Shown here in pieces: positions 1 through 14,101 of a stretch of DNA of 32,000 nucleotides. The notes beneath the pieces are model-generated. The model was not told the DNA's origin and did not search any database. It saw nothing but the letters and a program-made list of their open reading frames with translations. The first letter of the stretch is position 1. Every line of letters starts with the position of its first letter. Made by a program: the position numbers and the translations under genes. Source of the stretch: Pseudodesulfovibrio piezophilus C1TLV30 (lineage in GTDB: Bacteria > Desulfobacterota > Desulfovibrionia > Desulfovibrionales > Desulfovibrionaceae); NCBI RefSeq assembly GCF_000341895.1, contig NC_020409.1, positions 660,001-692,000 on the forward strand, written 5' to 3'.

Positions 1-2354
1 AGTTTTACGTCACCTATGTTGCGAATTCGGGGAGCAAAACGAAATCCGAGCAAATGGCAAAGAGCAAACACATGGTCCGTAAAACCTGCGGTGTCAGTGT
101 AGTGTTCTTCAATATTGAGATTGCTTTCATGGTAAAGCAAGCCGTCCAGGACATAGGTTGCATCGCGTGCTGTTGCGTTGATGAGCTGGCTGTGAAATGG
201 GGTGTATTGATCCGAGATGTGGGTGTAGAAAATCACACCGGGATCTCGCCCATATCGGGCATTTACATCTCCGAGGCCTCGACCAACACTGCCAAGAGGA
301 AAGTGCTGCCCGTCTGAAGACGAGGTGGAGCCATCGCCCCACTGTCCTGCAAGTGGAATTATGTGGTGGTAATTGGTTATCTCAGCCAACCCTCTGGAAT
401 AGCATTCGCTTCTGACATACCAATCCGAAACCCAAGACAACTGTTTATACGAGGCCCCGGAACTAGCCTCTGCCATCCTTGTCAGTCCAAGATTAATCCC
501 ATCTGAGAGAATCACTGACAAAAGAGATTCCTTGTCTTGAGATGGTTGGCCAGTTCTCAAATGAGTGAATTGTTCGGTGAAACCTGTCCATTGATCTACT
601 TCAATGAGGAGATCGGTAATTTTAATGCGAGGAAGCTCTGCATATACGCGCCGGCTGAATTGCTTGGCTTCATCGGGAACAGAGTTACCCCTATATGGTT
701 GCATTGAAAGCCTACCATTCTTGAGACAAACCGTATCCAAATCATTGCTTCTGAGAAGCCTTTGGAATTCTTCCAACTGACTTTCAAGGAGTTCTTTCCG
801 CTCTGAGATGTATCTTGTGCAATCCGTTTCGACCGCTACAGGTATTTCACGAGACTCCTGAAGCTGACGAAAAGCGGAAGGGCCCATGAGGTATTCGTTG
901 AAATCTTCGAATTGACGGCTGCCTGGTACCCATACATCGCCAGAACGGAGTCGGTTACGGAGTTCGCTTAAAGCGCACAGTTCATAGTACCTACGGTTCA
1001 GGCCATCAGTTTCGAAAATAAATGGTTGCCAGCGTTTTGGGATAAATGAAGTAGGAACTTGGTCGGGCAATTTGCGTTTGCCCGTTTTGTTCATGTCACG
1101 GATGATATCAATAGCTGTAAGAACATCCCGTCCACCAGAGCTTGCACGGAAGTCAAAATGCTCCAACATGGTTGGAGCATACCGCCGAATCTGATTGAAA
1201 CTCGTGTCAACATAATGGAGATAATCGAACCGCTGAGGTTGAGACAGGTTTTCAGCAGCTTCAACCGTTGCACGAAAATCATCCCAGGACAGTTCAGCCT
1301 CGATTAGCTCCCAAGGGTCTAAATGCTCCTCACGCGCTTTGATTAAGGCTTGGCCAAGCTTTGAGAAAACGTTGACGGTTGTTTTGATGTTCTTTGCATC
1401 ATCTTGTAGCTGAGTAGCCTGTTTTCGTTGGCTACGCCGCATTAGGGAGCCAATGATGCGGTCATGCATGTTGACGACCTCATCCATTAAGGAGCGTTGA
1501 ATTTCAAGCAAGCATACGGTCATGATCGTATACCGTCTTTGTTCATTCAACATTCGCAGATTATGCACAGCAATTCGATTACCTTCTTGGGCAAGTTGCT
1601 TGCGGCGAATTGTCGGTACTGCGTCCAAGACCTCGGAAGGAAGACCAAGCAACCGGATAGCGGCCAACTTTTCCATTATCAAAATCACATTTATAGGAGA
1701 AGGACGGCCAGCAGGTTGACGAATCCATGAAAGTCTACTCTGTGATTTCTCGCCTCGTGGATTAAGCCAAAATTTAAGATCAGCCTGGTGCCTGTCGGAC
1801 AACAGGCCGGTCACTTCATTGTAGACTCTGCGATCTGCTTGGATCTTCACCTGGGCAACGAGGCGTTCCACAACTGTCAAAGCAGGATGCAGAATTTTGC
1901 GACGTCTCAATTCATTTAGGGTTGCACCTACAAGGAAAGTACTCTTTGGATTGTCTACAGCAATTGGCGTCAGCCAGCGCACCATCTCTTGATAGTGACT
2001 ATCTCCAAATCTTGAAAGCCGGAAAAACTCTATCAAGGTCTTAAAATGCTCTCTGCGCGTCTGGTCTCTGTCCGCGTAGCCACAGAAGACTTCCGACTCT
2101 TCTTCTATTTGCTCTGCAATGAATTCGACCAAGGAATCGGGAATTTCATCATCGGGTCGTAAGGCCCTTCCAGGGAATTTGATGAGACAGAGTTGTAAAG
2201 CAAATCCGAGCCGATTGCGTGGCCGTCTACATTTGGAAATAAGTGCAAGTTCGTCTTCGTCCAAAACGTAGTACCGTGTGAGTAAATCCGGAACGCTTGG
2301 TAAGACTTCAAAAACGGTTCTCTGGGAAGAGGAAAGGACTGTTCTGCGAGGCAT
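1..2354 (-). CDS. tnpA: Tn3-family DDE transposase TnpA, N-terminal ~784 codons; C-terminus lies beyond the left window edge
   Basis: Not in the ORF track because there is no stop inside the window. Hand translation from ATG at 2354 gives [65 protein letters not shown]. Near the edge it gives [34 protein letters not shown]. Both are hallmark Tn3/Tn21-type TnpA blocks. No fragment ORFs are reported in this minus frame, consistent with one uninterrupted reading frame. Confidence 0.9.
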   Translation of the reverse strand, partial: [784 protein letters not shown]

Positions 2355-2490
2355 TTGAACCCACTTGTATCTTTTCTAGAATCAATAACGTATTGTTAAC
2401 ATAGTTTGTGATACGGAATAAGGTACAGGATATCGTACCTACCTGAACTATATTGGACATGTAACTCAAACGAGGGTTTGTGAACAGCCT
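2355..2490. promoter_or_regulatory. res-type resolution site / divergent tnpA-tnpR promoter region
   Basis: 136-bp region between divergent tnpA and tnpR, where res lies in Tn3-type elements. It contains the dyad AGGTAC-N8-GTACCT (2421-2440), centred on an AT dinucleotide, and the palindrome TGTTAACA (2394-2401). Subsites I-III were not delimited. Confidence 0.55.
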
Positions 2491-3117
2491 ATGAAAATTG
2501 GTTACGCACGAGTGTCAAAAGCTGATGGCTCACAAAATTTAGATCTCCAACGAGATGCTTTGCTGAAGGCAGGAGTTCCTGCTAAGCGCATTTATGAAGA
2601 CATGGCTTCCGGCAAGAAAGGCAAACGTCCAGGTTTGGACGCTTGCCTAAAAGCTCTACGCCAAGGAGACATTCTGTTGATTTGGAAGCTTGATCGCCTA
2701 GGGCGAGATCTCAAGCACCTTGTATGCGTGGTGCAAGAACTTGCTGAGAAGGATATTGGCTTTAAAGTCCTCACAGGGCGTGGGGCAGATATCGACACAA
2801 CCTCTGCAAGTGGCAAGCTGATTTTTGGCATCTTCGCAGCCCTTGCCGAGTTCGAGCGTGAATTGATCAGAGAGCGAACCATGGCAGGGCTTGAAGCCGC
2901 CCGCGCTCGCGGTCGCAAGGGAGGACGGCGATTCGCTCTAAACAAGACCCAAGTACAAATGGCGCAAGCTGCAATGAAAAACAAGACAACTAGCGTGAGG
3001 AATCTCTGTAAAGAGCTTGGGGTAACACGGGTCACCCTTTATAGGTATGTAAGTCCAAGTGGTGCGTTAAGGGGGCATGGCATACAGGTTTTAAATCCAC
3101 ATGCCCCACATGCATAA
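2491..3117 (+). CDS. tnpR: Serine recombinase, Tn3-family resolvase TnpR
   Basis: 208 aa. N-terminal MKIGYARVSKADGSQNLDLQ is the catalytic-serine motif. It also has a GRKGGR hinge and a C-terminal HTH (VRNLCKELGVTRVTLYRY). Divergent from tnpA. Confidence 0.9.
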   Translation: MKIGYARVSKADGSQNLDLQRDALLKAGVPAKRIYEDMASGKKGKRPGLDACLKALRQGDILLIWKLDRLGRDLKHLVCVVQELAEKDIGFKVLTGRGADIDTTSASGKLIFGIFAALAEFERELIRERTMAGLEAARARGRKGGRRFALNKTQVQMAQAAMKNKTTSVRNLCKELGVTRVTLYRYVSPSGALRGHGIQVLNPHAPHA

Positions 3118-3144
3118 GTCGTCAACTTCATTTATTGCGATATC

Positions 3145-3408
3145 TTATTGTCTTGTCAGCACTTCCTTCATTCGTTGGTATTCATCCGCAGTGAGTTCTC
3201 CCTTTGCGAATTTTTCCTTGATGATGTTCAGGGAGTCATCTCTGTCCGGTCGTCCACCTTGTCGGGAGGTGAAGGCTTGAAAGAGTTTGGAGATGAGATA
3301 CACCGCAACCAATGCGAGAAGTATCATCCAAATGAATCCAAACATGCCGCCTCCCATGAACCAGCCGGGGCCACCGCCATTCAATATTCCAAAATTACAA
3401 CTCCACAT
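3145..3408 (-). CDS. Small SHOCT-domain membrane protein
   Basis: 87 aa with a Gly-rich N-terminus and one TM segment (IWMILLALVAVYLISKLF). The C-terminal KFAKGELTADEYQRMKEVL is a SHOCT-type motif. SD AAGGAGA lies 7 nt upstream of the ATG. It lies 70 nt downstream of the ZraP-like gene on the same strand. Confidence 0.7.
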   Translation of the reverse strand: MWSCNFGILNGGGPGWFMGGGMFGFIWMILLALVAVYLISKLFQAFTSRQGGRPDRDDSLNIIKEKFAKGELTADEYQRMKEVLTRQ

Positions 3409-3439
3409 GATTTAATCTCCTTATGAGCATGAGAGGTGA

Positions 3440-3457
3440 GGGGGAGTTTCCTCCCCC
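3440..3457 (-). promoter_or_regulatory. GC-rich intercistronic hairpin between the ZraP-like and SHOCT genes
   Basis: GGGGGAG-TTTC-CTCCCCC: perfect 7-bp stem with a 4-nt loop. No T-tract follows on the minus strand, so it is not a classical terminator. Confidence 0.4.
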
Positions 3458-3477
3458 ATCGAATTCGAGATTCAGAC

Positions 3478-3942
3478 CTACCAACGGGGGCAGTTGTAGC
3501 CGTATCCATTATCGTAGCCATTGTAACCCATCATACCGGGACCCATACCACGCCCCATCATGCCTCGGCCCATTCCGCGTCCCATCATGCCGGGACCCAT
3601 CATGCCATTGGTCGGGAGATTCTGAGCAGCAGCCTTTTCATTGAGGGTGGTGATGCCCTCATTGATCTGCTTTGTCAGGCTGCGGACCTTCTTTGCATCA
3701 GGATTAGGACTGGCCATGATAGCGGCCAGTTCAGCGCGGTCTGCATCAATCTCTGCCCTCAGCTTGGCGGTGGAGTTCAGGAAGTCCTGATACGCCTTGT
3801 TGTTGGTGTCGAAGGATTGTGCATTGTATCCATTGCCATTCCAACCTCCGCAGTTGCCGTATCCCCATGCCATTGCATCGGTTGCGACGAAAGCGAGACC
3901 AACAGCCATAACCAGTGCCAAAGCGATAATGTTCTTCTTCAT
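3478..3942 (-). CDS. zraP: ZraP/Spy/CpxP-family periplasmic stress protein with Gly/Met-rich tail
   Basis: The track ORF is 3478-3984. The signal peptide MKKNIIALALVMAVGLAFVATDAMA begins at ATG 3942, with SD AGGAGA 7 nt upstream. The central helical segment is AKLRAEIDADRAELAAIMASPNPDAKKVRSLTKQINE. The C-terminal tail is GMMGPGMMGRGMGRGMMGRGMGPGMMG. It is divergent from a sigma-54 HK/RR pair, as in E. coli zraP-zraSR. Confidence 0.72.
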   Translation of the reverse strand: MKKNIIALALVMAVGLAFVATDAMAWGYGNCGGWNGNGYNAQSFDTNNKAYQDFLNSTAKLRAEIDADRAELAAIMASPNPDAKKVRSLTKQINEGITTLNEKAAAQNLPTNGMMGPGMMGRGMGRGMMGRGMGPGMMGYNGYDNGYGYNCPRW

Positions 3943-3991
3943 GATAATTTCTCCTATTGAGTGTTTTGTGAACAAGCTTTGCAATGACTAA

Positions 3992-4007
3992 GGCAAGACT
4001 GATGCCA
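3992..4007 (-). promoter_or_regulatory. Sigma-54 (-24/-12) promoter for the ZraP-like operon
   Basis: The minus strand reads TGGCAT-CAGTC-TTGCC. This matches TGGCAC-N5-TTGCW with the correct GG-N10-GC spacing. It lies about 50 nt upstream of the ATG at 3942, and a sigma-54 activator is encoded next door. Confidence 0.65.
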
Positions 4008-4187
4008 AAGAATGAACAAACTCTACAAGTCGCACTTAATATTGGAGAAAAGTATTTTCCAGCGGAATCCGCCGCGTGATCTGGATTGAGAAGGTAGGCG
4101 TGAGTGCTTAAAAAGTGTACACATGAGGCATGCAGAGTGTCTAAATTTTAGCCAGGCTGTCTCGATCTGAAAAAGGAAAGCCGAATA

Positions 4188-6029
4188 ATGAAGAAAAGAA
4201 TCAACAATTTTTTGGGAAATATGTCGCCTTGGGCTGTTATCGGGATGAGCCTTATCCTTGTAATCGTGGTGCTCGTTTTGGCATTCATGAATTACAATCG
4301 CGAAAAACAATATATGGGACGGGTGCTCAGTGAGAAAGGCTCGGCCTTGATCAAAGCCTTTGAAGCAGGAACACGCACTGGAATGATGGGCATGCTCGGT
4401 GAGGGACCCAACCTGCAAGTGTTGATGCAAGAAATCGCGACCCAACCCGACATCCTCTACATTGCCGTGGTAGACTCCTCCGGAGAAATTCTGGCGCATA
4501 GTAATGAAGTTGAAATCGGTCAGCAGTTTATCTCCGAAAAGGATTTGACCGAGTTGGCTGTCACCAAGGATTCTCAGTGGCGTGTCGTAGATGAACCCGA
4601 AGGCACAAAGTCTTTCGAGGTGTTCAAGCGATTCCTTCCTGCTTTGGCACAGCGCACTCAGTCTGGCCTGCCTGCAGCAATGCAGCAAAGAAGAAGCCAG
4701 ATGATGCAGCGTATGATGGGCAGACAGTCAGGAGGCATGTCCGATGATTGGTGCCAACCGGGCTGGATGAGTGGACTTAAACAGGACAGGATATTGGACC
4801 CAGCCGAACGACCTGCCATATTTATTGGTATGGACGTAGCTCCGTTCGAAGAGGCCATTGCCGAAGACGTTTCATTAACATTGACTATGTCAGGTATCCT
4901 GCTGCTCTTGGGCCTTGGTGGCGTGGTGTCTTTGTTCTGGATGCAAAGCCACACACGGTCCAAGAAGCTTTTGCAGGACTCTCAAGCGTTGACCGCAGAG
5001 ATGGTAGCGAACATCCCAGAAGGTCTGGTTGTATGCGATCCTGATGGACGAATCACCTATGCAAACGACATTGCCCTTGCTCTGTTGGCACGTGATTATG
5101 ATGATATCACACGGATTGTGGGACAACAGGCCAAAACCCTCTTGCCCGATGAACTCTGGGTGCTTCGCTCCTCAGTAAATACAGAGCAGCAGGTAGTTGA
5201 GAAAGAAATGGAGCTTGCGTTGAATGACGGACATAAGTTGCCTATAGCGGCGGTTGTAACTGATATCATCACCGAAGAGGGAGTCAATGTTGGCCAGTTA
5301 TTTATGGTTCGCGACCTGAGTCAGGTCAAAGAACTCCAAGAAGAGGTTCGCAAAGCCGATAGAATGGCAGCTATTGGTCATCTTGCCGCAGGTGTTGCTC
5401 ATGAGGTGCGCAACCCTCTGAGTTCCATCAAGGGCTATGCAACATACTTCGGCTCCCTTTTTGATGAAGGCAGCGACAATCGAAAGGCAGCAGAGGTCAT
5501 GACCTCGGAAGTTGATCGACTGAACCGAGTCATATCTGAACTCCTTGAAATGGCCCGTCCTGCTGACGTCAAACTGCGCGATACGGATGTCTCAACGCTT
5601 CTTGAAAGCTCTCTGCGCTTGGTTAAACAGGAGGCCGAAAGTGCGGGTGTGTCCGTGTCCTTGGAGACCTCCAAAGACATTGGAGATGTCATCCTCGACC
5701 CGGATCGGATGACGCAAGCCATGATCAACCTTTACGTCAATGCCATTCAGGCCATGCCGGATGGAGGCACGCTTGCAGTCGATGCCAACAGGCATGGAGC
5801 TTTCTTGCAGTTGACGGTTTCAGATACAGGCGCAGGGCTTTCTGATGCTGATGTGTCGCGCATATTTGACCCGTACTTCACCACCAAACAGACCGGAACA
5901 GGGTTGGGCCTTGCCATCGTGAGCAAGATTGTCGAAGCCCATTCCGGCGAAATCAAAGTTGAATATACCGGGCCAAATGGAACAGCTTTTACCATTCTCA
6001 TTCCGATAGAATCAAAAGGAACGGCGTAA
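4188..6029 (+). CDS. zraS: Membrane sensor histidine kinase, ZraS/HydH-like
   Basis: 613 aa. Two TM segments bracket a ~200-aa periplasmic domain, followed by a PAS-like region. H-box HEVRNPLSSIKG; ATPase boxes NLYVNAIQAM, DTGAGL and GTGLGLAI. Confidence 0.85.
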   Translation: MKKRINNFLGNMSPWAVIGMSLILVIVVLVLAFMNYNREKQYMGRVLSEKGSALIKAFEAGTRTGMMGMLGEGPNLQVLMQEIATQPDILYIAVVDSSGEILAHSNEVEIGQQFISEKDLTELAVTKDSQWRVVDEPEGTKSFEVFKRFLPALAQRTQSGLPAAMQQRRSQMMQRMMGRQSGGMSDDWCQPGWMSGLKQDRILDPAERPAIFIGMDVAPFEEAIAEDVSLTLTMSGILLLLGLGGVVSLFWMQSHTRSKKLLQDSQALTAEMVANIPEGLVVCDPDGRITYANDIALALLARDYDDITRIVGQQAKTLLPDELWVLRSSVNTEQQVVEKEMELALNDGHKLPIAAVVTDIITEEGVNVGQLFMVRDLSQVKELQEEVRKADRMAAIGHLAAGVAHEVRNPLSSIKGYATYFGSLFDEGSDNRKAAEVMTSEVDRLNRVISELLEMARPADVKLRDTDVSTLLESSLRLVKQEAESAGVSVSLETSKDIGDVILDPDRMTQAMINLYVNAIQAMPDGGTLAVDANRHGAFLQLTVSDTGAGLSDADVSRIFDPYFTTKQTGTGLGLAIVSKIVEAHSGEIKVEYTGPNGTAFTILIPIESKGTA

Positions 6030-6031
6030 AT

Positions 6032-7402
6032 ATGAGTGCCAAGATTTTAGTTGTAGACGATGACAAAGCACACCTATCAATGCTTGAAACGATGCTTACG
6101 GGGTGGGGGTATGCTGTTGTGGGCGTGGAAGATGGGGCAGACGCCATTGAGAAGGTGAAGGAGGCTCCCTTTGACGCTGTTCTGATGGACGTCAGAATGG
6201 CAAGAATCGGTGGCATTGAAGCCCTGAGCCAGATCAAGGAATATAACCCGGCCATTCCGGTTGTGATCATGACCGCATACTCTTCCGTTGATACGGCTGT
6301 GGAGGCGATGAAGTTGGGGGCGTATGACTACCTGACCAAGCCCTTGAACTTTGATGAACTCAATATGACTTTGGAGCGTTCTCTGGACCACATGACGCTC
6401 ATCAAGGAAAACCAGTCCCTCAAAGAGAGAATATCGGAAGACTCAAGCCTGACGGACATTATCGGCAACAGCAAGCCCATGAACGAGCTTATCAGTATGG
6501 TTAAGACTGTCGCATCGACTGAGGCCACGATCTTGATCTCCGGCGAGAGTGGCACCGGGAAGGAACTGTTTGCCAAAGCGATCCACGCAAACAGCAACCG
6601 GAAGAAGGCATCGCTTGTGACTGTCAATTGCGCTGCCCTGACTGACACTCTCTTAGAATCAGAACTCTTCGGCCATGAAAAAGGTGCGTTCACTGGAGCA
6701 GACAAGAAAAGGGATGGCCGTTTCATGCAAGCCAACGGTGGTTCCATATTCTTGGATGAGGTTGGTGAAATACCGATGCCAATGCAGGCAAAGTTGCTCC
6801 GGGCAATTCAAGAGCGAGAAATCCAACGAGTCGGCAGTGACAAAGTCTTGAAGGTTGATGTCCGAATCATCGCAGCAACCAACAGAGACCTCTTGGTTGA
6901 AGTCGAAAAAGGGAATTTCCGAGAAGACCTGTATTACAGGCTGAACGTGGTGAACCTCTGGATTCCGTCTTTGAAGGAGCGTGGAGAGGATACACCACTG
7001 TTGGCTACATTTTTCTTGAAGCGTTTCTCCGAGTTCAACAGAAAGCAGTTGAAGGGATTTACCCCCATGGCAATGGATGTGCTCGTGAAATATGATTGGC
7101 CCGGAAATGTCCGTGAACTGGAAAACGCAGTGGAAAGAGCAGTCATTCTTTCCGCTGGTGAATACGTGTCTGAAAAGGATTTGCCTTCAGCACTTACGCA
7201 GCATTTCGAAAATGTTAGTGGCTCCAATGGAGGCCAGCATCACGTAGGCGGCAAGTCGCTGCAAGAGATCGAAAAGGTTGCCATCGAAGAAACGCTGACA
7301 CAGACGGAAGGCAATAAAAGCGAGGCGGCAAAGCTGCTGGGCATCACGCGCACGACGTTGGACAATAAGATCAAGAAGTATGAAATATTTATTAAGAAAT
7401 AA
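6032..7402 (+). CDS. zraR: Sigma-54-dependent response regulator (NtrC family), ZraR/HydG-like
   Basis: 456 aa. Receiver domain (ILVVDDD, DVRM); AAA+ activator core with GESGTGKE and the GAFTGA loop; C-terminal Fis-type HTH (AAKLLGITRTTLDNKIKKY). The start codon is 3 nt after the kinase stop. Confidence 0.9.
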   Translation: MSAKILVVDDDKAHLSMLETMLTGWGYAVVGVEDGADAIEKVKEAPFDAVLMDVRMARIGGIEALSQIKEYNPAIPVVIMTAYSSVDTAVEAMKLGAYDYLTKPLNFDELNMTLERSLDHMTLIKENQSLKERISEDSSLTDIIGNSKPMNELISMVKTVASTEATILISGESGTGKELFAKAIHANSNRKKASLVTVNCAALTDTLLESELFGHEKGAFTGADKKRDGRFMQANGGSIFLDEVGEIPMPMQAKLLRAIQEREIQRVGSDKVLKVDVRIIAATNRDLLVEVEKGNFREDLYYRLNVVNLWIPSLKERGEDTPLLATFFLKRFSEFNRKQLKGFTPMAMDVLVKYDWPGNVRELENAVERAVILSAGEYVSEKDLPSALTQHFENVSGSNGGQHHVGGKSLQEIEKVAIEETLTQTEGNKSEAAKLLGITRTTLDNKIKKYEIFIKK

Positions 7403-7491
7403 CGATCGCGTTTTTTTACTGTCTCGCAATTAGAAATTATTATTACAACAGTCAGACATTTAAGAGGAGGGGGAACCACTTGGGGCGCTTT

Positions 7492-7530
7492 CTAAGCGTG
7501 CGTTTTTTCCCTTTCTATGGAGTGTCCCCC
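7492..7530 (-). repeat. Terminal inverted repeat (right end) of the Tn3-family transposon
   Basis: The reverse strand reads GGGGGACACTCCATAGAAAGGGAAAAAACGCACGCTTAG. Outer GGGG and inner ACGCT(T)AG are the Tn3-family IR signature. From memory, the Tn501/Tn1721 IR is GGGGGAACCGCAGAATTCGGAAAAAATCGTACGCTAAG. With GGGGG outermost at 7530, the element lies to the left. Confidence 0.75.
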
Positions 7531-7541
7531 TGAAGACGACT

Positions 7542-7573
7542 AAACGGAGGCGGCTTTCAAGCCGCCTCCGTTT
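7542..7573. terminator. Strong symmetric hairpin (possible bidirectional terminator)
   Basis: AAACGGAGGCGGC-TTTCAA-GCCGCCTCCGTTT: perfect 13-bp stem with A/T-run ends. It starts 12 nt outside the transposon IR. Confidence 0.5.
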
Positions 7574-7583
7574 ATGTGCCCCT

Positions 7584-7620
7584 AAACAAAACGGCCCGAC
7601 ACTTCCCCAAGTGTCGGGCC
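7584..7620 (-). terminator. Rho-independent terminator of the island operon
   Basis: GGCCCGACACT-TCCCCA-AGTGTCGGGCC: perfect 11-bp stem. On the minus strand it is followed by GTTTTGTTT. It lies 30 nt downstream of the stop of the 195-aa gene. Confidence 0.7.
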
Positions 7621-7649
7621 ATTCAAGGAGAAAGGGGCAACGCTGAAAG

Positions 7650-8237
7650 TTACCACCCCATGAAATTGCGAATTCTCAACTCTTCCTGTCGAGCTTGCTC
7701 ATGAGTGCTCATTGACAAAACCTGTTCAGGTTTGGCTCCAGCCCGGAAAAACAAATGCAAAGTTCCTTGGGAAAAATTAGAGCTACCAACAGAGTGGCTC
7801 CTTTCTCCTGCACCAACGTCACGCAAATCTGAAAGCCGGTACATCTCCCCGCCGAAATAGATAGCGTCGGCCCCACGATCAATCACCAGGTAGCCTCCAC
7901 GTCGATACTTAGCCGGCACGTAGAAATCGACCTGGATCTCACCGCACTCAATCGCTCGTTTAATTCTATTGTAGGTAGGCACAGCGAATATGTGACTGAA
8001 TGCAAATAAAAGCGTGATAATGCCCACCGGAACGAGAAACCAAAAGGCTATAAGAGACCAAAAGGCAGCAATATCATTCATGCCGAGTGCAGCAGACACG
8101 ATCAGTAGAGTAACAACAACTCCTAGCCCTTTTAAATCCCTGACCACAGGGTTTAGGCCAATGATATCCTTCAGCTGATCCTTGACAGAATTACCCCCTT
8201 CTTGACTGAAGGGAATACTGTTCGTGCTAAAATTCAT
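7650..8237 (-). CDS. Hypothetical two-TM membrane protein (candidate entry-exclusion-type protein by position only)
   Basis: 195 aa. SD GGAGG upstream of the ATG. Two adjacent hydrophobic helices (VVVTLLIVSAALGM and AFWSLIAFWFLVPVGIITLLFAF) are followed by a ~110-aa soluble domain. I recognised no family motif. Confidence 0.6.
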   Translation of the reverse strand: MNFSTNSIPFSQEGGNSVKDQLKDIIGLNPVVRDLKGLGVVVTLLIVSAALGMNDIAAFWSLIAFWFLVPVGIITLLFAFSHIFAVPTYNRIKRAIECGEIQVDFYVPAKYRRGGYLVIDRGADAIYFGGEMYRLSDLRDVGAGERSHSVGSSNFSQGTLHLFFRAGAKPEQVLSMSTHEQARQEELRIRNFMGW

Positions 8238-8273
8238 ATGGCCTCCATTTCAGAATTGATTTCGAACTCTCAA

Positions 8274-8294
8274 ATACGTATAAAGTATACGTAT
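8274..8294. promoter_or_regulatory. Operator-like palindrome upstream of the 195-aa gene
   Basis: ATACGTATA-AAG-TATACGTAT: perfect 9-bp arms. It lies 37-57 nt upstream of the ATG at 8237 and 35 nt downstream of the stop of the 761-aa gene. Confidence 0.35.
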
Positions 8295-8328
8295 GATTGT
8301 TAAAAAAATCAATTTCATTCTATGAGTC

Positions 8329-10602
8329 TCAATCTCGGTCAAGCAAATTCGAGCCAGCCCCTCCCGTCCCTTCAACCACTTCTGACACCTCTCCAGGCCT
8401 ATTGGGGTTATATCCAGAGCTTCCTCCAGAGGATTCACCACCTCCCTTCTTACCTTGGTTATCACCTCTCTGAGGCTTGCTACTAGGCTTAGGGGAACTA
8501 TGCGTCACATTCCCCACACCTCCCATAATTATTTGCCTCATAGAATCAGCATGTCCTGCGAGGCCCATTGTAGAAGCCTGATGACCTATCCAACTCATAA
8601 CTTTACGCGGCAGGTGAGAATAGCCTTGGGAGCAAAGGAAAGAAAACATATAGACGAAAAGTACACTCATGATAATACACATGAAGAAACTAGTTAAAAT
8701 GCCTGTATGGGATGAAACCGAACTAATATCTGCATTCGAATAACTGTAATAAAATGCTTCAAATATTCTAGCGACAATCCAGCCCATCACTCTCATGATC
8801 ATAAATATAATTATAAAACCAGCGACATAGAGAGGTGGTTTAAAAAGAATCTCAAGGAATTGGTAGTATCCCTGACTACCCATTTCGCCTGCAAGGCCGT
8901 CTGCTTGAGTACTCCATGCATGGGCAGCCACCCAAAAAGGTGCGGCTACCATCACTTCTACGACAAGCAACAGAAATCCAACCATAGCAATACACCAATA
9001 CAACATAGGCATAAGAGGTATTACATAGGCAAATATAATTCCGATTGTGTACAGTCCATCAGTAATTTTAACCACCGATTCGGCTATGTACTTTGCCCCT
9101 TCTATACCGGCTCCAGCAGCTCCTTCAAGCTGTCCACCTGTGAAGACACCAACAACTTTCCCAAACAAACTCTCGGTAAAGCCCTCCCCGTAACCTGAGG
9201 CCATGCGCAATCCCAGCCCTGCACTCCAAAGCATGGCACTTGCATCCATTATTCGATGTCCAAATTGCGCGACTACGAGCGTAGGATCTTCATTTTCAAA
9301 GCGATTCAACAGATCTTGGAGGAAAAAACGCCCAGAAAAAGCATATAACGCATCTTCAACCATGCTAGACACATCTCCAGCTAGCATAGCTTGCTTGATG
9401 GACGTACCTACTTGTGATGGATCGGGTTGCGCATTAAATTTCGCATCGCCTACGGATAAGGCTATTCCCAGACCACCAAAAAGAAAATCTTCGGCTTGTC
9501 GGCTAACAGCCTTGGTATCCATTCGGCTCAAGTTAACCGGGCTAGCAACTATATCTCGTGCTTCCCTAGAAAGCTGAGACATCATCAACGGCCATGCGCC
9601 AGCTGCCATCCAGCCAAGTTCTTTAGTCTTGCCAACAAACTTCTGAGAATCTTGTGTGATCTGATATTGAGGGTAGTATGACGCAAAGTTTTGAATGACC
9701 GGCATGACGGAACTTTGATACGCATTAACAGCTGAAATCAGCCAATTGGAATCAGTTTGCTCTACACCGTATACGATTCTGGAGGCAGCCGGGAAAATCA
9801 CATTATTCATAGCTATGATGCCGTTCACTTTCGCCAACATCATAGGGTCTTTGACATCACCAGGGATTTCGATAGTGCCGAGATCCTCTGAATCTAGACC
9901 ACGCCCTGGAGGAACCGCGAATTTAAAAATCCACTTTGGCCTGTCGTTTGAAAACAAGCTGAAGTCATTGGACTCAAGGGTTGAACTATGGGCACTGGTG
10001 GAAAACGGTAAAAAGCCTACCCACACCGGAGAAATTGGCTGGGAACCTCGTTTCAAAAATTCCCTATTCTCATCAATGGACTCTTTGCTAATGTAATTCT
10101 GAACCAAGCCTGCCTGCATCAAAACACGCGCGATATTCTTGGCCTCCTCTTGCATCTGTGGAGGCATTTCAGCCGTGACTGCAGCAAAATTGGATTTAGC
10201 CAAATGATCCATGGAAAAGTAATAGATGCTATTTGCCCAGGTGCATGCCCAACCGAGGCATACAAGAATTCCAGCTTGAAAAAGGGAAATCCCCCCCGAA
10301 AGCATAGGAGTCGTCATGGTCATTCCAAACATGCAACGGATCGGCCACCACACACCATTGAAACGCCTACCTCCGACCGTGCCCTCCTGGGCAGTTCCAC
10401 CCAGAGACATAACAAAGGTCCATATCGACCAACCAACAACCGCCGCCATGAGCAGCGTGTTGATCTCGGAGAGAATTTTGAAAAAGGGGGTGTTGACCGA
10501 GGCGTGCTCTGTAATCGCCCACCAGTTCTCTCCAAATATCTTCGAGAATGCGATCGCGGACATGTCGGTTGGGGAAAGGTCAGGAGAGATAGGTATGGCC
10601 AT
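8329..10602 (-). CDS. Polytopic membrane protein, DotA/TraY-family-like (type IVB secretion / I-type conjugation)
   Basis: The track ORF starts at TTG 10614; ATG 10602 (MAIPISPDLSP) is the likelier start. The N-terminal block SPTDMSAIAFSKIFG...TAQEGTVGGRRFNGVWWPIRCMFGMTMTTP parallels, from memory, the conserved DotA N-terminus PPPTDLSVVFLGNLFG...TAHEGQMLGQKWSSIWVPVRSTIGLALLIP. Topology is an N-terminal TM pair, a ~350-aa extracytoplasmic region and a C-terminal TM bundle. Size is close to IncI TraY. Confidence 0.55.
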   Translation of the reverse strand: MAIPISPDLSPTDMSAIAFSKIFGENWWAITEHASVNTPFFKILSEINTLLMAAVVGWSIWTFVMSLGGTAQEGTVGGRRFNGVWWPIRCMFGMTMTTPMLSGGISLFQAGILVCLGWACTWANSIYYFSMDHLAKSNFAAVTAEMPPQMQEEAKNIARVLMQAGLVQNYISKESIDENREFLKRGSQPISPVWVGFLPFSTSAHSSTLESNDFSLFSNDRPKWIFKFAVPPGRGLDSEDLGTIEIPGDVKDPMMLAKVNGIIAMNNVIFPAASRIVYGVEQTDSNWLISAVNAYQSSVMPVIQNFASYYPQYQITQDSQKFVGKTKELGWMAAGAWPLMMSQLSREARDIVASPVNLSRMDTKAVSRQAEDFLFGGLGIALSVGDAKFNAQPDPSQVGTSIKQAMLAGDVSSMVEDALYAFSGRFFLQDLLNRFENEDPTLVVAQFGHRIMDASAMLWSAGLGLRMASGYGEGFTESLFGKVVGVFTGGQLEGAAGAGIEGAKYIAESVVKITDGLYTIGIIFAYVIPLMPMLYWCIAMVGFLLLVVEVMVAAPFWVAAHAWSTQADGLAGEMGSQGYYQFLEILFKPPLYVAGFIIIFMIMRVMGWIVARIFEAFYYSYSNADISSVSSHTGILTSFFMCIIMSVLFVYMFSFLCSQGYSHLPRKVMSWIGHQASTMGLAGHADSMRQIIMGGVGNVTHSSPKPSSKPQRGDNQGKKGGGESSGGSSGYNPNRPGEVSEVVEGTGGAGSNLLDRD

Positions 10603-10603
10603 A

Positions 10604-11464
10604 CTATTCACCAAGCTCCTTCATCGTCTTTACAACCATGCTTCTAGCTACATCAGTATCAAAACTTAAGCCGCCTATTGTAATCATTGGGGTACTCGTT
10701 GCGTCTAAGAAATGAATGAAGTCTTCCCCCCGCCCCTCAGAAATCAACTTTTCAATCACTGCTCGATGCTGACTTGAGGAGCTTCCCCTCTCTCCTTGAG
10801 CCACTTTCTCGGCCTCCTTCTCAAGTAAATCCAAATTCAATTTTCCCTGTTCGCCAAGAAGCACCATTTTTGCTTTATATGCATCGGCATCTTTTTTGAT
10901 TACCGAACATATATCAATCCACCTCAAGACCTCAGAAGAAAGACAACCACTACTGCCTTTTCTCTTTTTTGTTCTTGTTCTCTTTTGGGGGTTCTCTTCA
11001 AAGAGGTACTGATTCTCTTTGGGTGACATCTTGTCACCGTTGGAGGGGTGACTTTTTGTCGCTCCTAGGGGTGACTTTTTGTCATCCCTAGGGCGACTTT
11101 TTGTCACCCTGTCAGACTCTTGCTTTGTCCGAGTCAAAGCTGAATCAAAAATTGGATGCCAAAGGAAATAATAACGATTGGTTGTCTGCAGACGACTTTT
11201 CTTTCTGAAGCAACGCTCAACTTCAATGAACTTTTTTTCAATCAACTCATTGAGACAGCGTTGTACGGTTCGTCCGCTACAGCCGAGCCCTTCTGCAATG
11301 GTATCAACACCAGGAAAACAATCACCGGTTTCACCTGCATGTTGTGCTAACTTCCCCCAAACAAGTTTAGATGAAAGCTGTAACCCATCGAAACTCGCTA
11401 CAATATCAGGAATAAATAACCCCACAAAAAGCTTGTAAGGCAAAAAGCGCACACCGGGTTGCAT
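10604..11464 (-). CDS. Winged-helix/HTH (HTH_36-like) protein, putative replication initiator of the element
   Basis: 286 aa. The N-terminal LSSKLVWGKLAQHAGETGDCFPGVDTIAEGLGCSGRTVQRCLNELIEKKFIE is the pattern seen in phage/plasmid replication-organiser HTH domains. A basic low-complexity linker is encoded by the iteron-like repeats. The start is 4 nt after the alpA stop. Confidence 0.55.
   Translation of the reverse strand: MQPGVRFLPYKLFVGLFIPDIVASFDGLQLSSKLVWGKLAQHAGETGDCFPGVDTIAEGLGCSGRTVQRCLNELIEKKFIEVERCFRKKSRLQTTNRYYFLWHPIFDSALTRTKQESDRVTKSRPRDDKKSPLGATKSHPSNGDKMSPKENQYLFEENPQKRTRTKKRKGSSGCLSSEVLRWIDICSVIKKDADAYKAKMVLLGEQGKLNLDLLEKEAEKVAQGERGSSSSQHRAVIEKLISEGRGEDFIHFLDATSTPMITIGGLSFDTDVARSMVVKTMKELGE
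11021..11108. repeat. Four phased iteron-like direct repeats (candidate ori) inside the rep-like gene
   Basis: GGGTGACATCTTGTCACC (11021), GGGGTGACTTTTTGTCGC (11045), GGGGTGACTTTTTGTCAT (11068) and GGGCGACTTTTTGTCACC (11091). The period is 22-25 bp. Each unit has the internal dyad GGTGAC/GTCACC. An A/T-rich homopurine tract (about 10950-11000) lies alongside. Confidence 0.6.
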
Positions 11465-11468
11465 AACT

Positions 11469-11672
11469 TTAGCTGGCTGCCGTTTCAGATAGGGAGTCTA
11501 TCAACTCAAGGATATCCTCAACACGCCAAGCCCTTGTTCTTTTCGTCAACTGCACAGGTTTTGGATATTTTCCAGACTTAACCCCACGCAACCAAGTACT
11601 GCGACTGAGGGGAATAACGGCAAGGACTTGAGGCAGGCGAACAAAGCCCACTTGCGGAAAAGGTTGTTTCAT
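11469..11672 (-). CDS. alpA: AlpA-family transcriptional regulator / excisionase-like HTH protein
   Basis: The track ORF starts at 11684 (MEEHM). ATG 11672 has SD GGAGGA upstream. The sequence FVRLPQVLAVIPLSRSTWLRGVKSGKYPKPVQLTKRTRAWRVEDILELI matches the AlpA/MerR-like excisionase pattern. Confidence 0.8.
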   Translation of the reverse strand: MKQPFPQVGFVRLPQVLAVIPLSRSTWLRGVKSGKYPKPVQLTKRTRAWRVEDILELIDSLSETAAS

Positions 11673-11691
11673 ATGTTCCTCCATAGATTAT

Positions 11692-11709
11692 GGCATTCAC
11701 ATGAATGCC
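11692..11709. promoter_or_regulatory. Palindrome immediately upstream of alpA
   Basis: GGCATTCA-CA-TGAATGCC: perfect 8-bp arms, 8-25 nt upstream of ATG 11684. No T-tract follows on the minus strand. Confidence 0.3.
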
Positions 11710-11795
11710 TTTACTCTTGGTGAAACCTTATGGAACAAAATCGATTATTAGTAACATTACAACTACCTCTATTATGAGGTGGTTAAAATGTAGAA

Positions 11796-12563
11796 TTATA
11801 ACTTGAGGTTATTTATAACAAGAGCCCCCAAAGTAGACTCGGCAAAAGGGTTACCAGTAAGACCAAGGGGTTTTTTAGTGTAATCAAGAAACAGTTTAGC
11901 AAACGTTAAAAATGGCCCACTGAACCCTGCGCCATCTGAACGTTTAGCACCACGGCCTTCTCCTCCAGCCTTATGATAATACTTCTGAAGCCATTTCAAG
12001 CAACGTTCAATTGCAAAATTTTCAGGACGCCCAGAAGGATATGGCAAGCTTCTCTCATCCATGATTTTTTTCCTACAAAGAGCAAGATAGTCGCTGACAT
12101 TTTTCCCATCTAGGGCGATTTCTCCGACTTCATCGTCGAATAATTTACATTCTTTGACAACCAACCGAGGAAAACCATCCCCTTCACCCCTATCTACAAA
12201 ACAATTCACAGATGGACGTACATGCTCGTACAGATACAACTTAATTGGATCATATTCATCTTCGCCTAAGGTTCCCGGGGAATCCCACTCGAGAAAAGAC
12301 TCAAGTAATCTACATGCTTTCTCAACATGTTTGAGCAACTCTTTTCTTTCGTCAGCTAAAGGCCTGTCCACACAACCTCTCAGCTGACAAACATATCCCG
12401 CGAGTGCCCTTTTTATACCTTCACGAATGTCTTCGTTTAGCTTTAGGCCTGTCTGTCCCTCTATTGCCTCAAAATTGATCTCAGGAAGGACGTCTAGATT
12501 AACACCGCTCCAAGACTCCCCTTTCCGACCAACAAAAGTATTTAATTTCGACCTTTCGCTCAT
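11796..12563 (-). CDS. Hypothetical protein, ~255 aa, translationally coupled to the integrase gene
   Basis: The track start GTG 12569 overlaps the int stop (GTGA). ATG 12563 has SD AAGGTGGGG inside the int 3' end. The protein is acidic and soluble-looking, and I recognised no motif. Confidence 0.6.
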   Translation of the reverse strand: MSERSKLNTFVGRKGESWSGVNLDVLPEINFEAIEGQTGLKLNEDIREGIKRALAGYVCQLRGCVDRPLADERKELLKHVEKACRLLESFLEWDSPGTLGEDEYDPIKLYLYEHVRPSVNCFVDRGEGDGFPRLVVKECKLFDDEVGEIALDGKNVSDYLALCRKKIMDERSLPYPSGRPENFAIERCLKWLQKYYHKAGGEGRGAKRSDGAGFSGPFLTFAKLFLDYTKKPLGLTGNPFAESTLGALVINNLKL

Positions 12564-12565
12564 AC

Positions 12566-13786
12566 TCACCCCACCTTCTGAGAAAACAATGGAACAACCT
12601 TCCCGCCAGCCTTCAAACTATCCAAATAGTCTGCCCAAGCTTGCATCATTAGTTTACGCTCCGGCAGATGCTCAGCGTAATTGTAGCTCGCCCTCACCTT
12701 GTCTTTAGGCGTGTGGGCCAACTGCCGCTCAATGGCATCCTTATGCCAGCCATGCTCATTTAAAAGTGTTGAAGCCATAGACCTGAAGCCATGCCCTGTC
12801 ATTTCGGTTTTGTCGTATCCAATACGCCGAAGAGATACATTGATCGTATTTTCAGACATCGGGCGTGCCGACGTTCGCACACTTGGAAAGACATACCCAG
12901 AGGGGCCAGTAAGTGGATGAAGTTCTGTTAAGACCTCCACGGCCTGAGTGGACAGGGGGACAATATGGGGACTTCCTCCTTTCATTTTCTCCGCAGGTAT
13001 CCGCCACTCGCTCCCCTCCAAATCAACTTCACCCCATTCTGCGTTCCTGAGTTCTCCTGGACGCACAAAAACCAAGGGAGCGAACCGAAGAGCGCAATGC
13101 ACCACCAAAGTCCCTGAGAAGCCATCTACAGCCCTTAAGAGGGGGCCGATTTCCTTAGGGTCGGTTATCGAAGGATGATGTTTCACCTTCCTCGCAGGAG
13201 GGAGCGCACCCTTGATATCCGCAGCAGGATCTCGCTCAGCTCGTCCGGCAGCCACTGCATAGCGGAAGACCTGGGACATTATTTGACGAATACGCCGAGC
13301 TGTCTCTACGGCTCCTCGTTTCTCGCATCGTTGAACGACTCCAAGCATATCCTCAACGCCAAGCTCCGATATGGGCCTGTCTCCAATGAAGGGGAAGATG
13401 TTCTTCTTCATCCGTTCCATTGTGGTTTTCGCGTGGCGCTCACTCCACCCTGAGCCTACCTGTTTCCCGAACCATTCCCTTGCAATGGCTTCAAATGCCT
13501 CACTTGCACTTGCTTTCCTCTTGTCCTCCTTGCGCTTCCGAGAAGGATCATGACCTTGAGCAATGAGGGTTTTCAGGTCTCCCCGCTTAAGTCGTGCTTC
13601 TTGCAAACTGATGTAAGGATATGGCCCCAGAGACAGCATGGTCCGCTTGCCATTGATTTGGTAGCGAAATCGCCACCACTTACGCCCTTTCGGGTTAACG
13701 ACTAGAGATAGGCCTTCACCATCATTCAGGGTGAATTCTTTGGATTTCGGTTTGGCTGCTTTGATCTTGGCATCTGTCAGCGGCAT
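12566..13786 (-). CDS. int: Tyrosine recombinase, P4-type phage/island integrase
   Basis: 406 aa. The N-terminal MPLTDAKIKAAKPKSKEFTLNDGEGLSLVVNPKGRKWWRFRYQINGKRTMLSLGPYP is the arm-binding domain typical of P4-like integrases. The C-terminal catalytic region includes HGFRSMASTLL and ASYNYAEHL. SD AGGAGAA. It lies 180 nt from a tRNA 3' end. Confidence 0.92.
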   Translation of the reverse strand: MPLTDAKIKAAKPKSKEFTLNDGEGLSLVVNPKGRKWWRFRYQINGKRTMLSLGPYPYISLQEARLKRGDLKTLIAQGHDPSRKRKEDKRKASASEAFEAIAREWFGKQVGSGWSERHAKTTMERMKKNIFPFIGDRPISELGVEDMLGVVQRCEKRGAVETARRIRQIMSQVFRYAVAAGRAERDPAADIKGALPPARKVKHHPSITDPKEIGPLLRAVDGFSGTLVVHCALRFAPLVFVRPGELRNAEWGEVDLEGSEWRIPAEKMKGGSPHIVPLSTQAVEVLTELHPLTGPSGYVFPSVRTSARPMSENTINVSLRRIGYDKTEMTGHGFRSMASTLLNEHGWHKDAIERQLAHTPKDKVRASYNYAEHLPERKLMMQAWADYLDSLKAGGKVVPLFSQKVG

Positions 13787-13803
13787 GTAGTCTTCTCCTG
13801 AGA

Positions 13804-13860
13804 GTGGTATAATGAAAAATGGTATATTTCGATTTATACCATTTTTTGTACCTTTATACC
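13804..13860. repeat. Four TGGTATA/TATACCA heptamers (candidate arm-type recombinase or AlpA sites)
   Basis: TGGTATA at 13804-13810 and 13819-13825; TATACCA at 13834-13840 and 13854-13860. They lie between the int start and the tRNA 3' end. Confidence 0.4.
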
Positions 13861-13902
13861 AGCCATCTCAAGACACCCTATGACACCGCAAGGCACACAA
13901 AA

Positions 13903-13931
13903 AGAAACAAAAAAGCCCTCATTTTGAGGGC
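13903..13931 (-). terminator. Rho-independent terminator downstream of tRNA-Ser
   Basis: AGCCCTC-ATTTT-GAGGGCT hairpin, followed on the minus strand by TTTTTGTTTCTT. Confidence 0.55.
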
Positions 13932-13967
13932 TTATGACACTTTATGAACCAAAGTGATTTTATTCTA

Positions 13968-14059
13968 TGGCGGAGAGGGAGGGATTCGAACCCCCGGACG
14001 AGTTGCCCCGCCTCTGGTTTTCAAGACCAGCGCATTAAACCGAGCTCTGCCACCTCTCC
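13968..14059 (-). tRNA. tRNA-Ser (anticodon UGA), CCA encoded
   Basis: The minus strand reads GGAGAGGTGGCAGAGCTCGGTTTAATGCGCTGGTCTTGAAAACCAGAGGCGGGGCAACTCGTCCGGGGGTTCGAATCCCTCCCTCTCCGCCA. It has a 7-bp acceptor stem, anticodon stem CTGGT/ACCAG with loop CTTGAAA, a long variable arm (class II) and T-arm GGGGG-TTCGAAT-CCCTC. Length 92 nt. Confidence 0.9.
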
Positions 14060-14101
14060 GTGAACTGATTGTTATTTGTTACAATCGAATCCGGGAGAAA
14101 C

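Follow-up and report, generated by a model that had tools for sequence, protein, structure and literature searches.

A putative iteron-type replication origin within the gene of its proposed initiator on a tRNA-Ser island of Pseudodesulfovibrio piezophilus

Introduction

Does a gene that encodes a helix-turn-helix (HTH) protein on a chromosomal island also contain the replication origin of the element that carries it? The question is raised by a 32,000-nucleotide stretch of the genome of Pseudodesulfovibrio piezophilus C1TLV30 (NC_020409.1, positions 660,001 to 692,000; this whole stretch is called the window below, and positions are counted from its first letter). There, an island integrated at a tRNA-Ser gene contains a minus-strand gene of 286 amino acids (aa), here called rep, within which the motif GGGTGAC-N5-GTCACC occurs in four copies at 11021-11108. 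An initial annotation of this DNA had compared the repeats with the origin (ori) of phage lambda inside gene O, and had proposed that the integrative element can replicate autonomously after excision. Our analysis supports its interpretation of the repeats as an origin: they are likely to be the iterons of a theta-type origin (oriV) placed inside the gene of its own initiator. This reading draws on the array itself, its conservation at the DNA level, the domain layout of the protein (Rep), homology to a phage O protein with a like array, and the synteny of related genes with helicases and helicase loaders, all of which were observed directly; replication activity is what we infer from them.

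Results

Four phased repeats inside the rep gene

Tandem Repeats Finder (TRF) described the array as having a period of 23, 3.8 copies and a score of 97. A search with the pattern GTGACTTTTTGTCAC, allowing up to three mismatches, gave four matches across the 32-kb window, all within the array. There are four copies of GGGTGAC phased at 22-25 bp, as initially annotated, with start-to-start distances from 11021 upward of 25, 23 and 22 bp. Read on the plus strand, the 18-nt units are GGGTGACATCTTGTCACC, GGGTGACTTTTTGTCGCT, GGGTGACTTTTTGTCATC and GGGCGACTTTTTGTCACC (see Table 1 for their coding-strand forms). An A5 tract lies at the centre of each iteron. A GGTGAC/GTCACC dyad had been ascribed to every copy; it is perfect only in the unit at 11021-11038. 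Iteron replicons are recognised by at least three direct repeats of 17-24 bp near helical phasing, and the rep gene has four at 22-25 bp.

As a null model we used 300 dinucleotide-preserving shuffles of the rep gene and recorded the largest local cluster of any 15-mer at up to two mismatches. The largest cluster was a single copy in 276 of the 300 shuffled genes and two copies in the other 24, against four in the real gene. No second tandem array was found in the island part of the window (7500-14100), and the GTGACTTTTTGTCAC search placed no iteron copy at the operon promoter region upstream of alpA. An Rfam scan matched the tRNA as its sole hit and nothing at the iteron array.

On the antisense strand (11033-11093, plus strand), each dyad together with its T5 run scores as a hairpin resembling an intrinsic terminator. 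In a terminator scan of 1.5 kb, four of the eight matches, each a hairpin followed by a T-run, fell within the array on the plus strand, compared with 1.6 expected. These hairpins are probably a by-product of the dyad and the A-tract, and they could block transcription antisense to rep.

The repeat is kept as DNA in homologous genes

In gene order, the iterons encode RVTKSRP, DDKKSP, ATKSHP and GDKMSP (aa 119-149), within the repetitive basic linker of the HTH protein that had been recognised earlier with its TKSRP, KKSPL and TKSHP peptides. Iterons 1 and 3 share one frame (V/A-TKS-R/H-P) and iterons 2 and 4 another (D/G-DK-K/M-SP), the period of the array not being divisible by three. Since translation of one unit yields TKS[RH]P in one frame and DK[KM]SP in the other, it is DNA that is repeated.

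A codon alignment of six genes, comprising the window rep and five homologues with available DNA (L001, L002, L065, L066 and L067; 41-64% aa identity), pointed the same way. In each of the five homologues, four GTGAC-N5-GTCAC-like units recur at 22-25 bp, with CCCAAAGAGAATCA after them. Mean pairwise identity in the N-terminal domain (aa 1-110) was 0.62 for amino acids and 0.38 for third codon positions, and in the C-terminal domain (aa 175-286) it was 0.34 for both. In the iteron codons (aa 118-149), amino-acid identity was 0.44 and third-codon-position identity 0.72; in the tract after the iterons (aa 149-172), the two values were 0.45 and 0.59. Whether homologues keep the repeats at the DNA level was a check proposed with the initial annotation, and the answer is that they do, without synonymous scrambling (third-position identity of 0.72, against 0.38 and 0.34 in the two domains). 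By this alignment, the iteron repeat is selected as DNA and not as peptide.

The same alignment showed that third-codon-position identity remains high past the box and purine tract, at rep codons 165-185 (around 10910-10970), with 0.59-0.68 across the six genes at an amino-acid identity of about 0.29. There may be a further conserved DNA element at this place, the start of the C-terminal domain.

A conserved box and a purine-rich tract follow the array

The coding strand beside the array is strongly purine-rich, with 73-82% pyrimidine on the plus strand over 10950-11020. Two bp past the last iteron, this region begins with the 10-nt box AAGAGAATCA, of which the window has one exact copy. We surveyed 64 loci from genome, viral and metagenome contigs together with the close homologues, which yielded 33 unique, reasonably complete open reading frames (ORFs) of the family. 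At up to one mismatch, AAGAGAATCA was present within 330 bp after the winged helix in 29 of these 33 ORFs, where it is 60 times as dense as in the flanks (4.4 against 0.074 per kb). It usually starts 2-12 bp past the last iteron and often occurs as tandem copies at 13-15 nt. Invariably on the coding strand, it is translated in each of the three frames (30, 15 and 3 boxes), giving KENH/KENQ, RESV or EES-type peptides according to the frame, and it is for this reason a DNA element and not a peptide motif. We regard the box as a candidate unwinding or helicase-loading element; the combination of box and purine tract beside an array is an origin-like rather than an operator-like feature. Among the matches listed by a full-text literature search for the box, there were only unrelated primer and miRNA sequences.

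Domain layout of the predicted initiator

A Pfam scan of Rep gave HTH_36 (51.1 bits, cut-off 25), DnaD_N (28 bits, cut-off 27) and HTH_11, and no match to RepA_N or Phage_rep_org_N. The AlphaFold2 (AF2) model, built on 19 sequences, had a mean predicted local distance difference test (pLDDT) score of 78.4 and divided the protein into three parts. A winged helix-turn-helix spans aa 1-118, with 10-residue blocks averaging mostly 85-97; a disordered linker (pLDDT <50) spans aa 119-171 and coincides with the iterons and the purine tract; and aa 177-284 form a helical domain with a small hairpin.

Searching the PDB with the full model using Foldseek gave nothing at E<=0.001. The best replication-related matches, all weak (E around 0.01, TM around 0.5), were the DnaD N-terminal domain (2v79) and the RepA_N initiators 4pql, 5kbj and 4pt7, and a sequence search of the PDB with the family profile returned generic winged-helix regulators and DnaD only (E>=0.005).

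A phage O protein carries a like array

By tblastn, the best matches in annotated collections came from coliphages mEp044, mEp010 and mEp013, in each case to the protein labelled 'DNA replication protein O'. In BLASTP, Rep and the mEp044 protein are 34% identical over 119 aa (aa 33-151; E=2e-13); the label 'replication protein O' is in this case a computational annotation. The mEp044 protein also has HTH_36 and DnaD_N in Pfam, and its gene likewise has four repeats, of 23 bp (GGTAGTGACACAGAGTCACCGGG), with a GTGAC-N5-GTCAC dyad, at the corresponding place in the gene (aa 94-123) and followed by AAAGAGAACA. The array inside the mEp044 O gene is probably the origin of this phage.

These three are Nus-dependent non-lambdoid coliphages of the mEpimmI group (PMC11893012). 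The four-iteron array of mEp044 is an unannotated feature at 2723-2810 of locus L003 (about 8821-8908 of PP180004.1), with mEp010 and mEp013 following by similarity. A term search of the mEpimmI paper (PMC11893012) turned up neither iterons nor a replication origin.

A large family shares the plan

An exhaustive HMMER search with a threshold of E<=0.001 retrieved 2,479 cluster representatives, of which 747 reached E<=1e-10. At E<=1e-30 there were four, three of them near full length. In most relatives the similarity is confined to the N-terminal domain and a portion of the linker, and their linkers are rich in short peptide repeats followed by KENH, KENQ, RESV or KESQ motifs. Among the 33 surveyed ORFs, 19 have TRF-detectable arrays directly 3' of the winged helix, with periods of 22-24 bp and 2-7 copies; these arrays are mostly dyad-symmetric, and their sequence changes from lineage to lineage. 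Most of the 33 relatives, which come from phages, plasmid-like elements and integrated elements, show a common plan of a winged helix, dyad iterons at 22-24 bp in a disordered linker, and a AAGAGAATCA box.

For ten distant homologues, we also looked at the genes found in the next few kb downstream. A DnaB-like helicase is encoded near four of them (strong matches in L006 and L047, weak ones in L012 and L015), a DnaC/IstB-like loader near L014, a large terminase near L010 and a MobA relaxase near L031. Such neighbours are the synteny expected of an initiator used by phages, plasmid-like elements and islands. In the literature, HTH_36 proteins have been reported as Rep proteins of Paracoccus plasmids (PMC3832669), and in some Stx phages they adjoin cI in a region of replication genes (PMC8951638).

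We also tabulated how the recognition helix and the iteron half-site vary together. An 'S-x-R-T' helix pairs with GTGA-type half-sites, but L028, which lacks RT, has GTGAAG, and the covariation was not used as evidence.

The island and its surroundings

The features of the window are collected in Table 1. On the minus strand, the order of genes is tRNA-Ser, int, orf257, alpA, rep, the DotA/TraY-family gene and a gene of 195 aa (orf195). The dotA/traY gene is probably part of the rep operon, because its ATG is found 1 nt after the rep stop codon; the best plasmid relatives of its product are from Desulfosarcina and Nitratidesulfovibrio (24% identity). The product of alpA is probably an excision or regulatory factor. 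There was no Pfam, NCBIfam or PADLOC match for orf257, and none in PADLOC or NCBIfam for orf195. A sigma-70 promoter scan of 10500-12000 gave no matches.

Table 1 Positions of the features discussed, in window coordinates
Feature	Position	Strand	Basis or remark
tRNA-Ser(TGA), integration target and island boundary	13968-14059	-	ARAGORN; Rfam
Tyrosine integrase (int)	12566-13786	-	Pfam Arm-DNA-bind_3, Phage_int_M, Phage_integrase
orf257, conserved island gene without family	11796-12569	-	72% identical to L001 281-1048, matching position
alpA-family gene	11469-11684	-	Directly upstream of rep, 4 bp apart; Pfam Phage_AlpA 32.9 bits
Putative initiator (rep / O-like) gene, 286 aa	10604-11464	-	HTH_36 + DnaD_N; AF2; BLASTP
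Putative iteron 1 (gene order)	11091-11108	-	GGTGACAAAAAGTCGCCC on coding strand, reading frame 2
Putative iteron 2	11069-11086	-	GATGACAAAAAGTCACCC, reading frame 0
Putative iteron 3	11046-11063	-	AGCGACAAAAAGTCACCC, reading frame 2
Putative iteron 4	11021-11038	-	GGTGACAAGATGTCACCC, reading frame 0, perfect dyad
Conserved AAGAGAATCA box	11010-11019	-	2 bp past last iteron; sole exact copy in window
Purine-rich tract	10950-11009	-	Moderately A/T-rich; encodes basic linker end NPQKRTRTKKRKGSS
Second, degenerate box copy	10975-10984	-	AAGAGAACAA; within purine-rich tract
DotA/TraY-family type IVB secretion membrane protein	8329-10614	-	TIGR04346 227.6 bits (cut-off 100)
Tn3-family transposon	1-7529		Transposase ORF runs off left window end
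38-bp inverted repeat (IR)-like end	7492-7529		Just past terminator hairpins of orf195
Sigma-54 two-component pair resembling ZraS/ZraR	4188-7402
Resolvase	2491-3117

A perfect palindrome, GGCATTCA-CA-TGAATGCC, is located at 11692-11709, 8 bp upstream of the alpA start codon, beside the stretch in which the A+T content of the region is highest (70-78%, 11720-11820). The palindrome may be the operator of the alpA-rep-traY operon.

In the closest relatives, rep is followed by different cargo. L001 has the orf257, alpA and rep core and then AbiEii and kinase/PP2C genes (7196-10823). In L065, a STAND-like ATPase and Trypco1 come after rep (2695-6313), as does a CBASS operon in L066 (SMODS, E2-CBASS and SLATT_4; 1062-4501). 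L067 has VirB5-like and TrbL genes after rep (1369-3326), then RloB/AAA_21 (6463-8428) and an integrase. Since the closest rep relatives precede anti-phage cargo, the int-alpA-rep core appears to be a vehicle for defence systems. The element of the window looks like a mobilizable island rather than a self-transmissible integrative and conjugative element, and more precisely like a replicative integrative mobilizable element of the kind represented by SGI1 and the PIMEs. PIMEs are mobilizable int-alpA-repA-trbJ-trbL islands with immune cargo, which, given an IncP helper plasmid, excise and are amplified up to eight-fold by replication, and whose four-iteron oriV has been cloned and shown to be functional (bioRxiv 10.64898/2026.01.12.698999). 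SGI1 is likewise reported to replicate after excision (PMC7433901, PMC7826253).

The left part of the window is occupied by the Tn3-type insertion recognised in the initial annotation, for which we found a transposase ORF, a resolvase gene and an IR-like end. We take the sequence at 7492-7529 to be a Tn3-family inverted repeat. The segment also holds a 174-aa ORF without known function, and megablast of the segment against the plasmid collection found no near-identical DNA.

Discussion

How the origin would work

If the array is active as an origin in this host, initiation would pass through binding, unwinding and helicase recruitment. A Rep dimer would bind each 18-bp dyad iteron through the N-terminal winged helix, and the four sites, phased at 22-25 bp and with A5 centres, would together form a bent nucleoprotein complex. 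This complex would stress the adjoining purine-rich tract, where the DNA would open, starting from the AAGAGAATCA box, and the C-terminal domain would then recruit the host replicative helicase, there being no helicase encoded by the element here, as in plasmid iteron replicons, SGI1 and PIMEs. The position of the origin in the codons of a disordered linker, a stretch tolerant of constraint at the DNA level, would resemble that of lambda ori in gene O. With the origin inside the alpA-rep-traY operon, induction of the operon would link excision to transcription across the origin and to replication of the excised circle in the manner of a plasmid.

Several observations weigh against this reading. 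Each of the three iterons other than that at 11021-11038 has one mismatch, in one half-site. The tract beside the array had been described as both homopurine and A/T-rich; the purine bias of the coding strand is strong, but the A/T-richness of 10950-11020 is modest, at 62% A+T compared with 56% for the whole gene. The duplex-stability profile has no marked unwinding minimum adjoining the iterons, and the least stable DNA of the locality is the intergenic region at around 11720-11820 (70-78% A+T), not the tract that flanks them. No DnaA box (up to one mismatch) was found in the island, the place beside the iterons being taken by the conserved AAGAGAATCA box, and the count over the whole window is at chance level. 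Modelled alone (pLDDT 85.4), the C-terminal domain had no structural relative in the PDB or BFVD (E>=0.6) and, being without structural or sequence relatives, it leaves the proposed helicase-recruitment step without structural support. In the experimentally studied PIME, oriV is downstream of repA and not inside it. No repeat of the 3' part of the tRNA-Ser gene of at least 12 nt, which would mark a second att site, was found in the window, and the far end of the island therefore lies outside it. With a Tn3-family transposon about 3 kb downstream of rep and the far end unseen, the element may be decayed. Finally, the visible 6.4 kb of the island contain no helicase, loader or primase gene, and neither a helicase nor a loader was found between 7530 and 13786. 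The initial annotation had noted the absence of primase and helicase genes between int and the Tn3 insertion; among iteron replicons such an absence is usual and does not count against an origin.

Other explanations of the repeats

The repeats might bind the HTH protein and yet be regulatory sites, acting in autorepression, as a roadblock within the operon, in copy-number handcuffing or in incompatibility, with the protein being a transcription factor or with the true origin elsewhere, perhaps outside the window. HTH_36 is a generic winged-helix model, and there are weak matches to regulators of the MarR/SlyA/Lrp type; moreover, the flanking tract is not strongly A/T-rich, the oriV of the studied PIME is outside repA and the distal part of the island extends beyond the window. 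A regulatory site would, however, be expected upstream of alpA, where there is no iteron copy and a different palindrome is found. Relatives of the protein are annotated as phage protein O and adjoin DnaB-like helicases or DnaC-like loaders, and the box and purine tract next to the array resemble an origin and not an operator. On balance we consider purely regulatory sites unlikely, bearing in mind that the two explanations overlap, because iteron replicons use the same sites for regulation and initiation.

Less probable still is some other role of the array in DNA or RNA, be it a packaging or recognition site of a helper phage or plasmid, a recombination site or a set of antisense terminators. 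This would be in keeping with the four hairpin and T-run matches on the plus strand within the array and with the terminase on some contigs of the family, and conservation at the DNA level is in itself without functional specificity. Against terminators, mEp044 keeps the array although its ACAGA spacer gives no T-run; the att site is at the tRNA, 2.9 kb distant, and there is no Rfam match. That the array is always in the linker of a DNA-binding protein, with lineage-specific dyads, is as expected if this protein is the ligand. We find it very hard to credit that the array is a peptide repeat or a recent slippage duplication with no function as DNA, even though it encodes a disordered, basic linker rich in Ser, Pro and Lys and a pair of units adds up to 45 bp, which is divisible by three. 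Neighbouring units differ in reading frame and in the peptide they encode; the DNA is retained in homologues with as little as 41% aa identity (third-position identity of 0.72 versus about 0.36 elsewhere); four GTGAC-N5-GTCAC units persist in a phage homologue that is 34% identical; and across the family there are related arrays at 22-24 bp, whose periods three does not divide.

Implications

An iteron origin inside rep, which we prefer to these alternatives, provides a testable origin candidate for a family of small tRNA-integrated islands. The cargo of its relatives consists of anti-phage systems (CBASS, AbiE-like, NACHT/STAND-like) or of single subunits of conjugation machines, and if the islands replicate after excision like SGI1 and PIMEs, the amplification, stabilisation and transfer of this cargo would be affected. 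The plan also gives a simple way to annotate origins in genes whose sole label is 'helix-turn-helix domain-containing protein', and the family offers a natural series of initiator-iteron specificity pairs.

A bolder extension is speculative, and we would rather doubt than expect it. In most of the roughly 2,500 clusters, AAGAGAATCA might be a universal and so far undescribed opening or helicase-loading signal, paired with lineage-specific iterons and recognised not by a host factor but by the initiator, through a conserved part of it that might, for example, bind single-stranded DNA of one strand. The island might in addition be a new replicative mobilizable element whose substitute TraY/DotA takes over type IVB (IncI-like) machines, as SGI1 and PIMEs carry TraG/TraN or TrbJ/TrbL for other types of type IV secretion system (T4SS). 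Entry exclusion in IncI plasmids is directed at TraY.

Comparison with known systems

A direct comparison bears out the likeness to lambda ori within O in the number and position of the iterons, the form of the dyad, the purine tract and the order of domains. In lambda (NC_001416), four annotated ori iterons of the ATCCCTCAAAACGAGGGA type, spaced at 20, 24 and 23 bp, lie at aa 117-145 of O, with AAAAGAAAAAAGAAAAGA after them. Both genes hold, between their domains, four dyad iterons of about 18 bp with an A-rich centre and a spacing of 20-25 bp, and those of Rep lie at nearly the same place (aa 119-149). Both have a purine-rich coding-strand tract after the iterons, that of the window being less A/T-rich than that of lambda. 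Unlike in lambda, there is no P-type helicase loader beside rep, the next gene being that for DotA/TraY, and the carrier is not a phage but a tRNA-integrated island with alpA and a T4SS gene. Membership in the lambda O family (Phage_rep_O, PF04492) was tried and ruled out, since Rep gives HTH_36, DnaD_N and HTH_11 in the Pfam scan, whereas lambda O itself scores 123 bits. Homology to lambda O was rejected as well, with a probability of 0.9% in hhalign of the family profile against lambda O, and the parallel with lambda is therefore one of architecture and not of family membership.

Origins inside the initiator gene are also known from P22, SPP1 and RepA_N plasmids. The initiator gene contains the origin in the RepA_N plasmids found in Firmicutes and in the case of phage replisome organisers (SPP1 G38P, DnaD-like), and as in these systems, the direct repeats of rep are found in the central, variable part of the gene. 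The winged helix of Rep has a weak structural likeness to the DnaD N-terminal domain (2v79) and RepA_N (4pql, 5kbj), with DnaD_N barely above the Pfam cut-off; it differs from RepA_N initiators and phage replisome organisers in having no RepA_N or Phage_rep_org_N match.

Closer to the window gene are the HTH_36 initiators, that is, O of mEp044-type phages and plasmid Rep proteins, with which Rep agrees in its HTH_36 score, in pairwise similarity and in having an array and a box. The C-terminal domains of mEp044 O and Rep are unrelated, and the iteron spacer of mEp044, ACAGA, contrasts with the T5 run on the plus strand of the window iterons. The phage gene belongs to an early region with cI upstream and Bro-N and ANT/Rha genes downstream, without a P-like gene.

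With regard to the island as a whole, the resemblance to PIMEs and SGI1 lies in the int-alpA-rep core at a chromosomal att site, here tRNA-Ser, in the immune cargo of the relatives and, as far as the visible part of the island shows, in a single T4SS subunit gene beside rep without a complete T4SS. Such subunits recall SGI1 and PIMEs, which remodel the conjugation machine of their helper. The VirB5-like and TrbL genes of L067 recall trbJ and trbL of PIMEs, where the window has the type IVB DotA/TraY instead. The oriV of PIMEs is intergenic, downstream of repA, and has a DnaA box and a region of 75% A/T, whereas the array of the window is inside rep and has no DnaA box. No relaxase or oriT was seen in the visible part of the window island in this comparison with PIMEs and SGI1. 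An origin inside the gene of its initiator is a classical arrangement, a principle known since lambda, and replicative int-alpA-rep islands have already been described, so that the design is a known one, found here in a large, little-described family. What goes beyond the known design is the family-wide plan with its invariant AAGAGAATCA box, together with a type of island that bears TraY.

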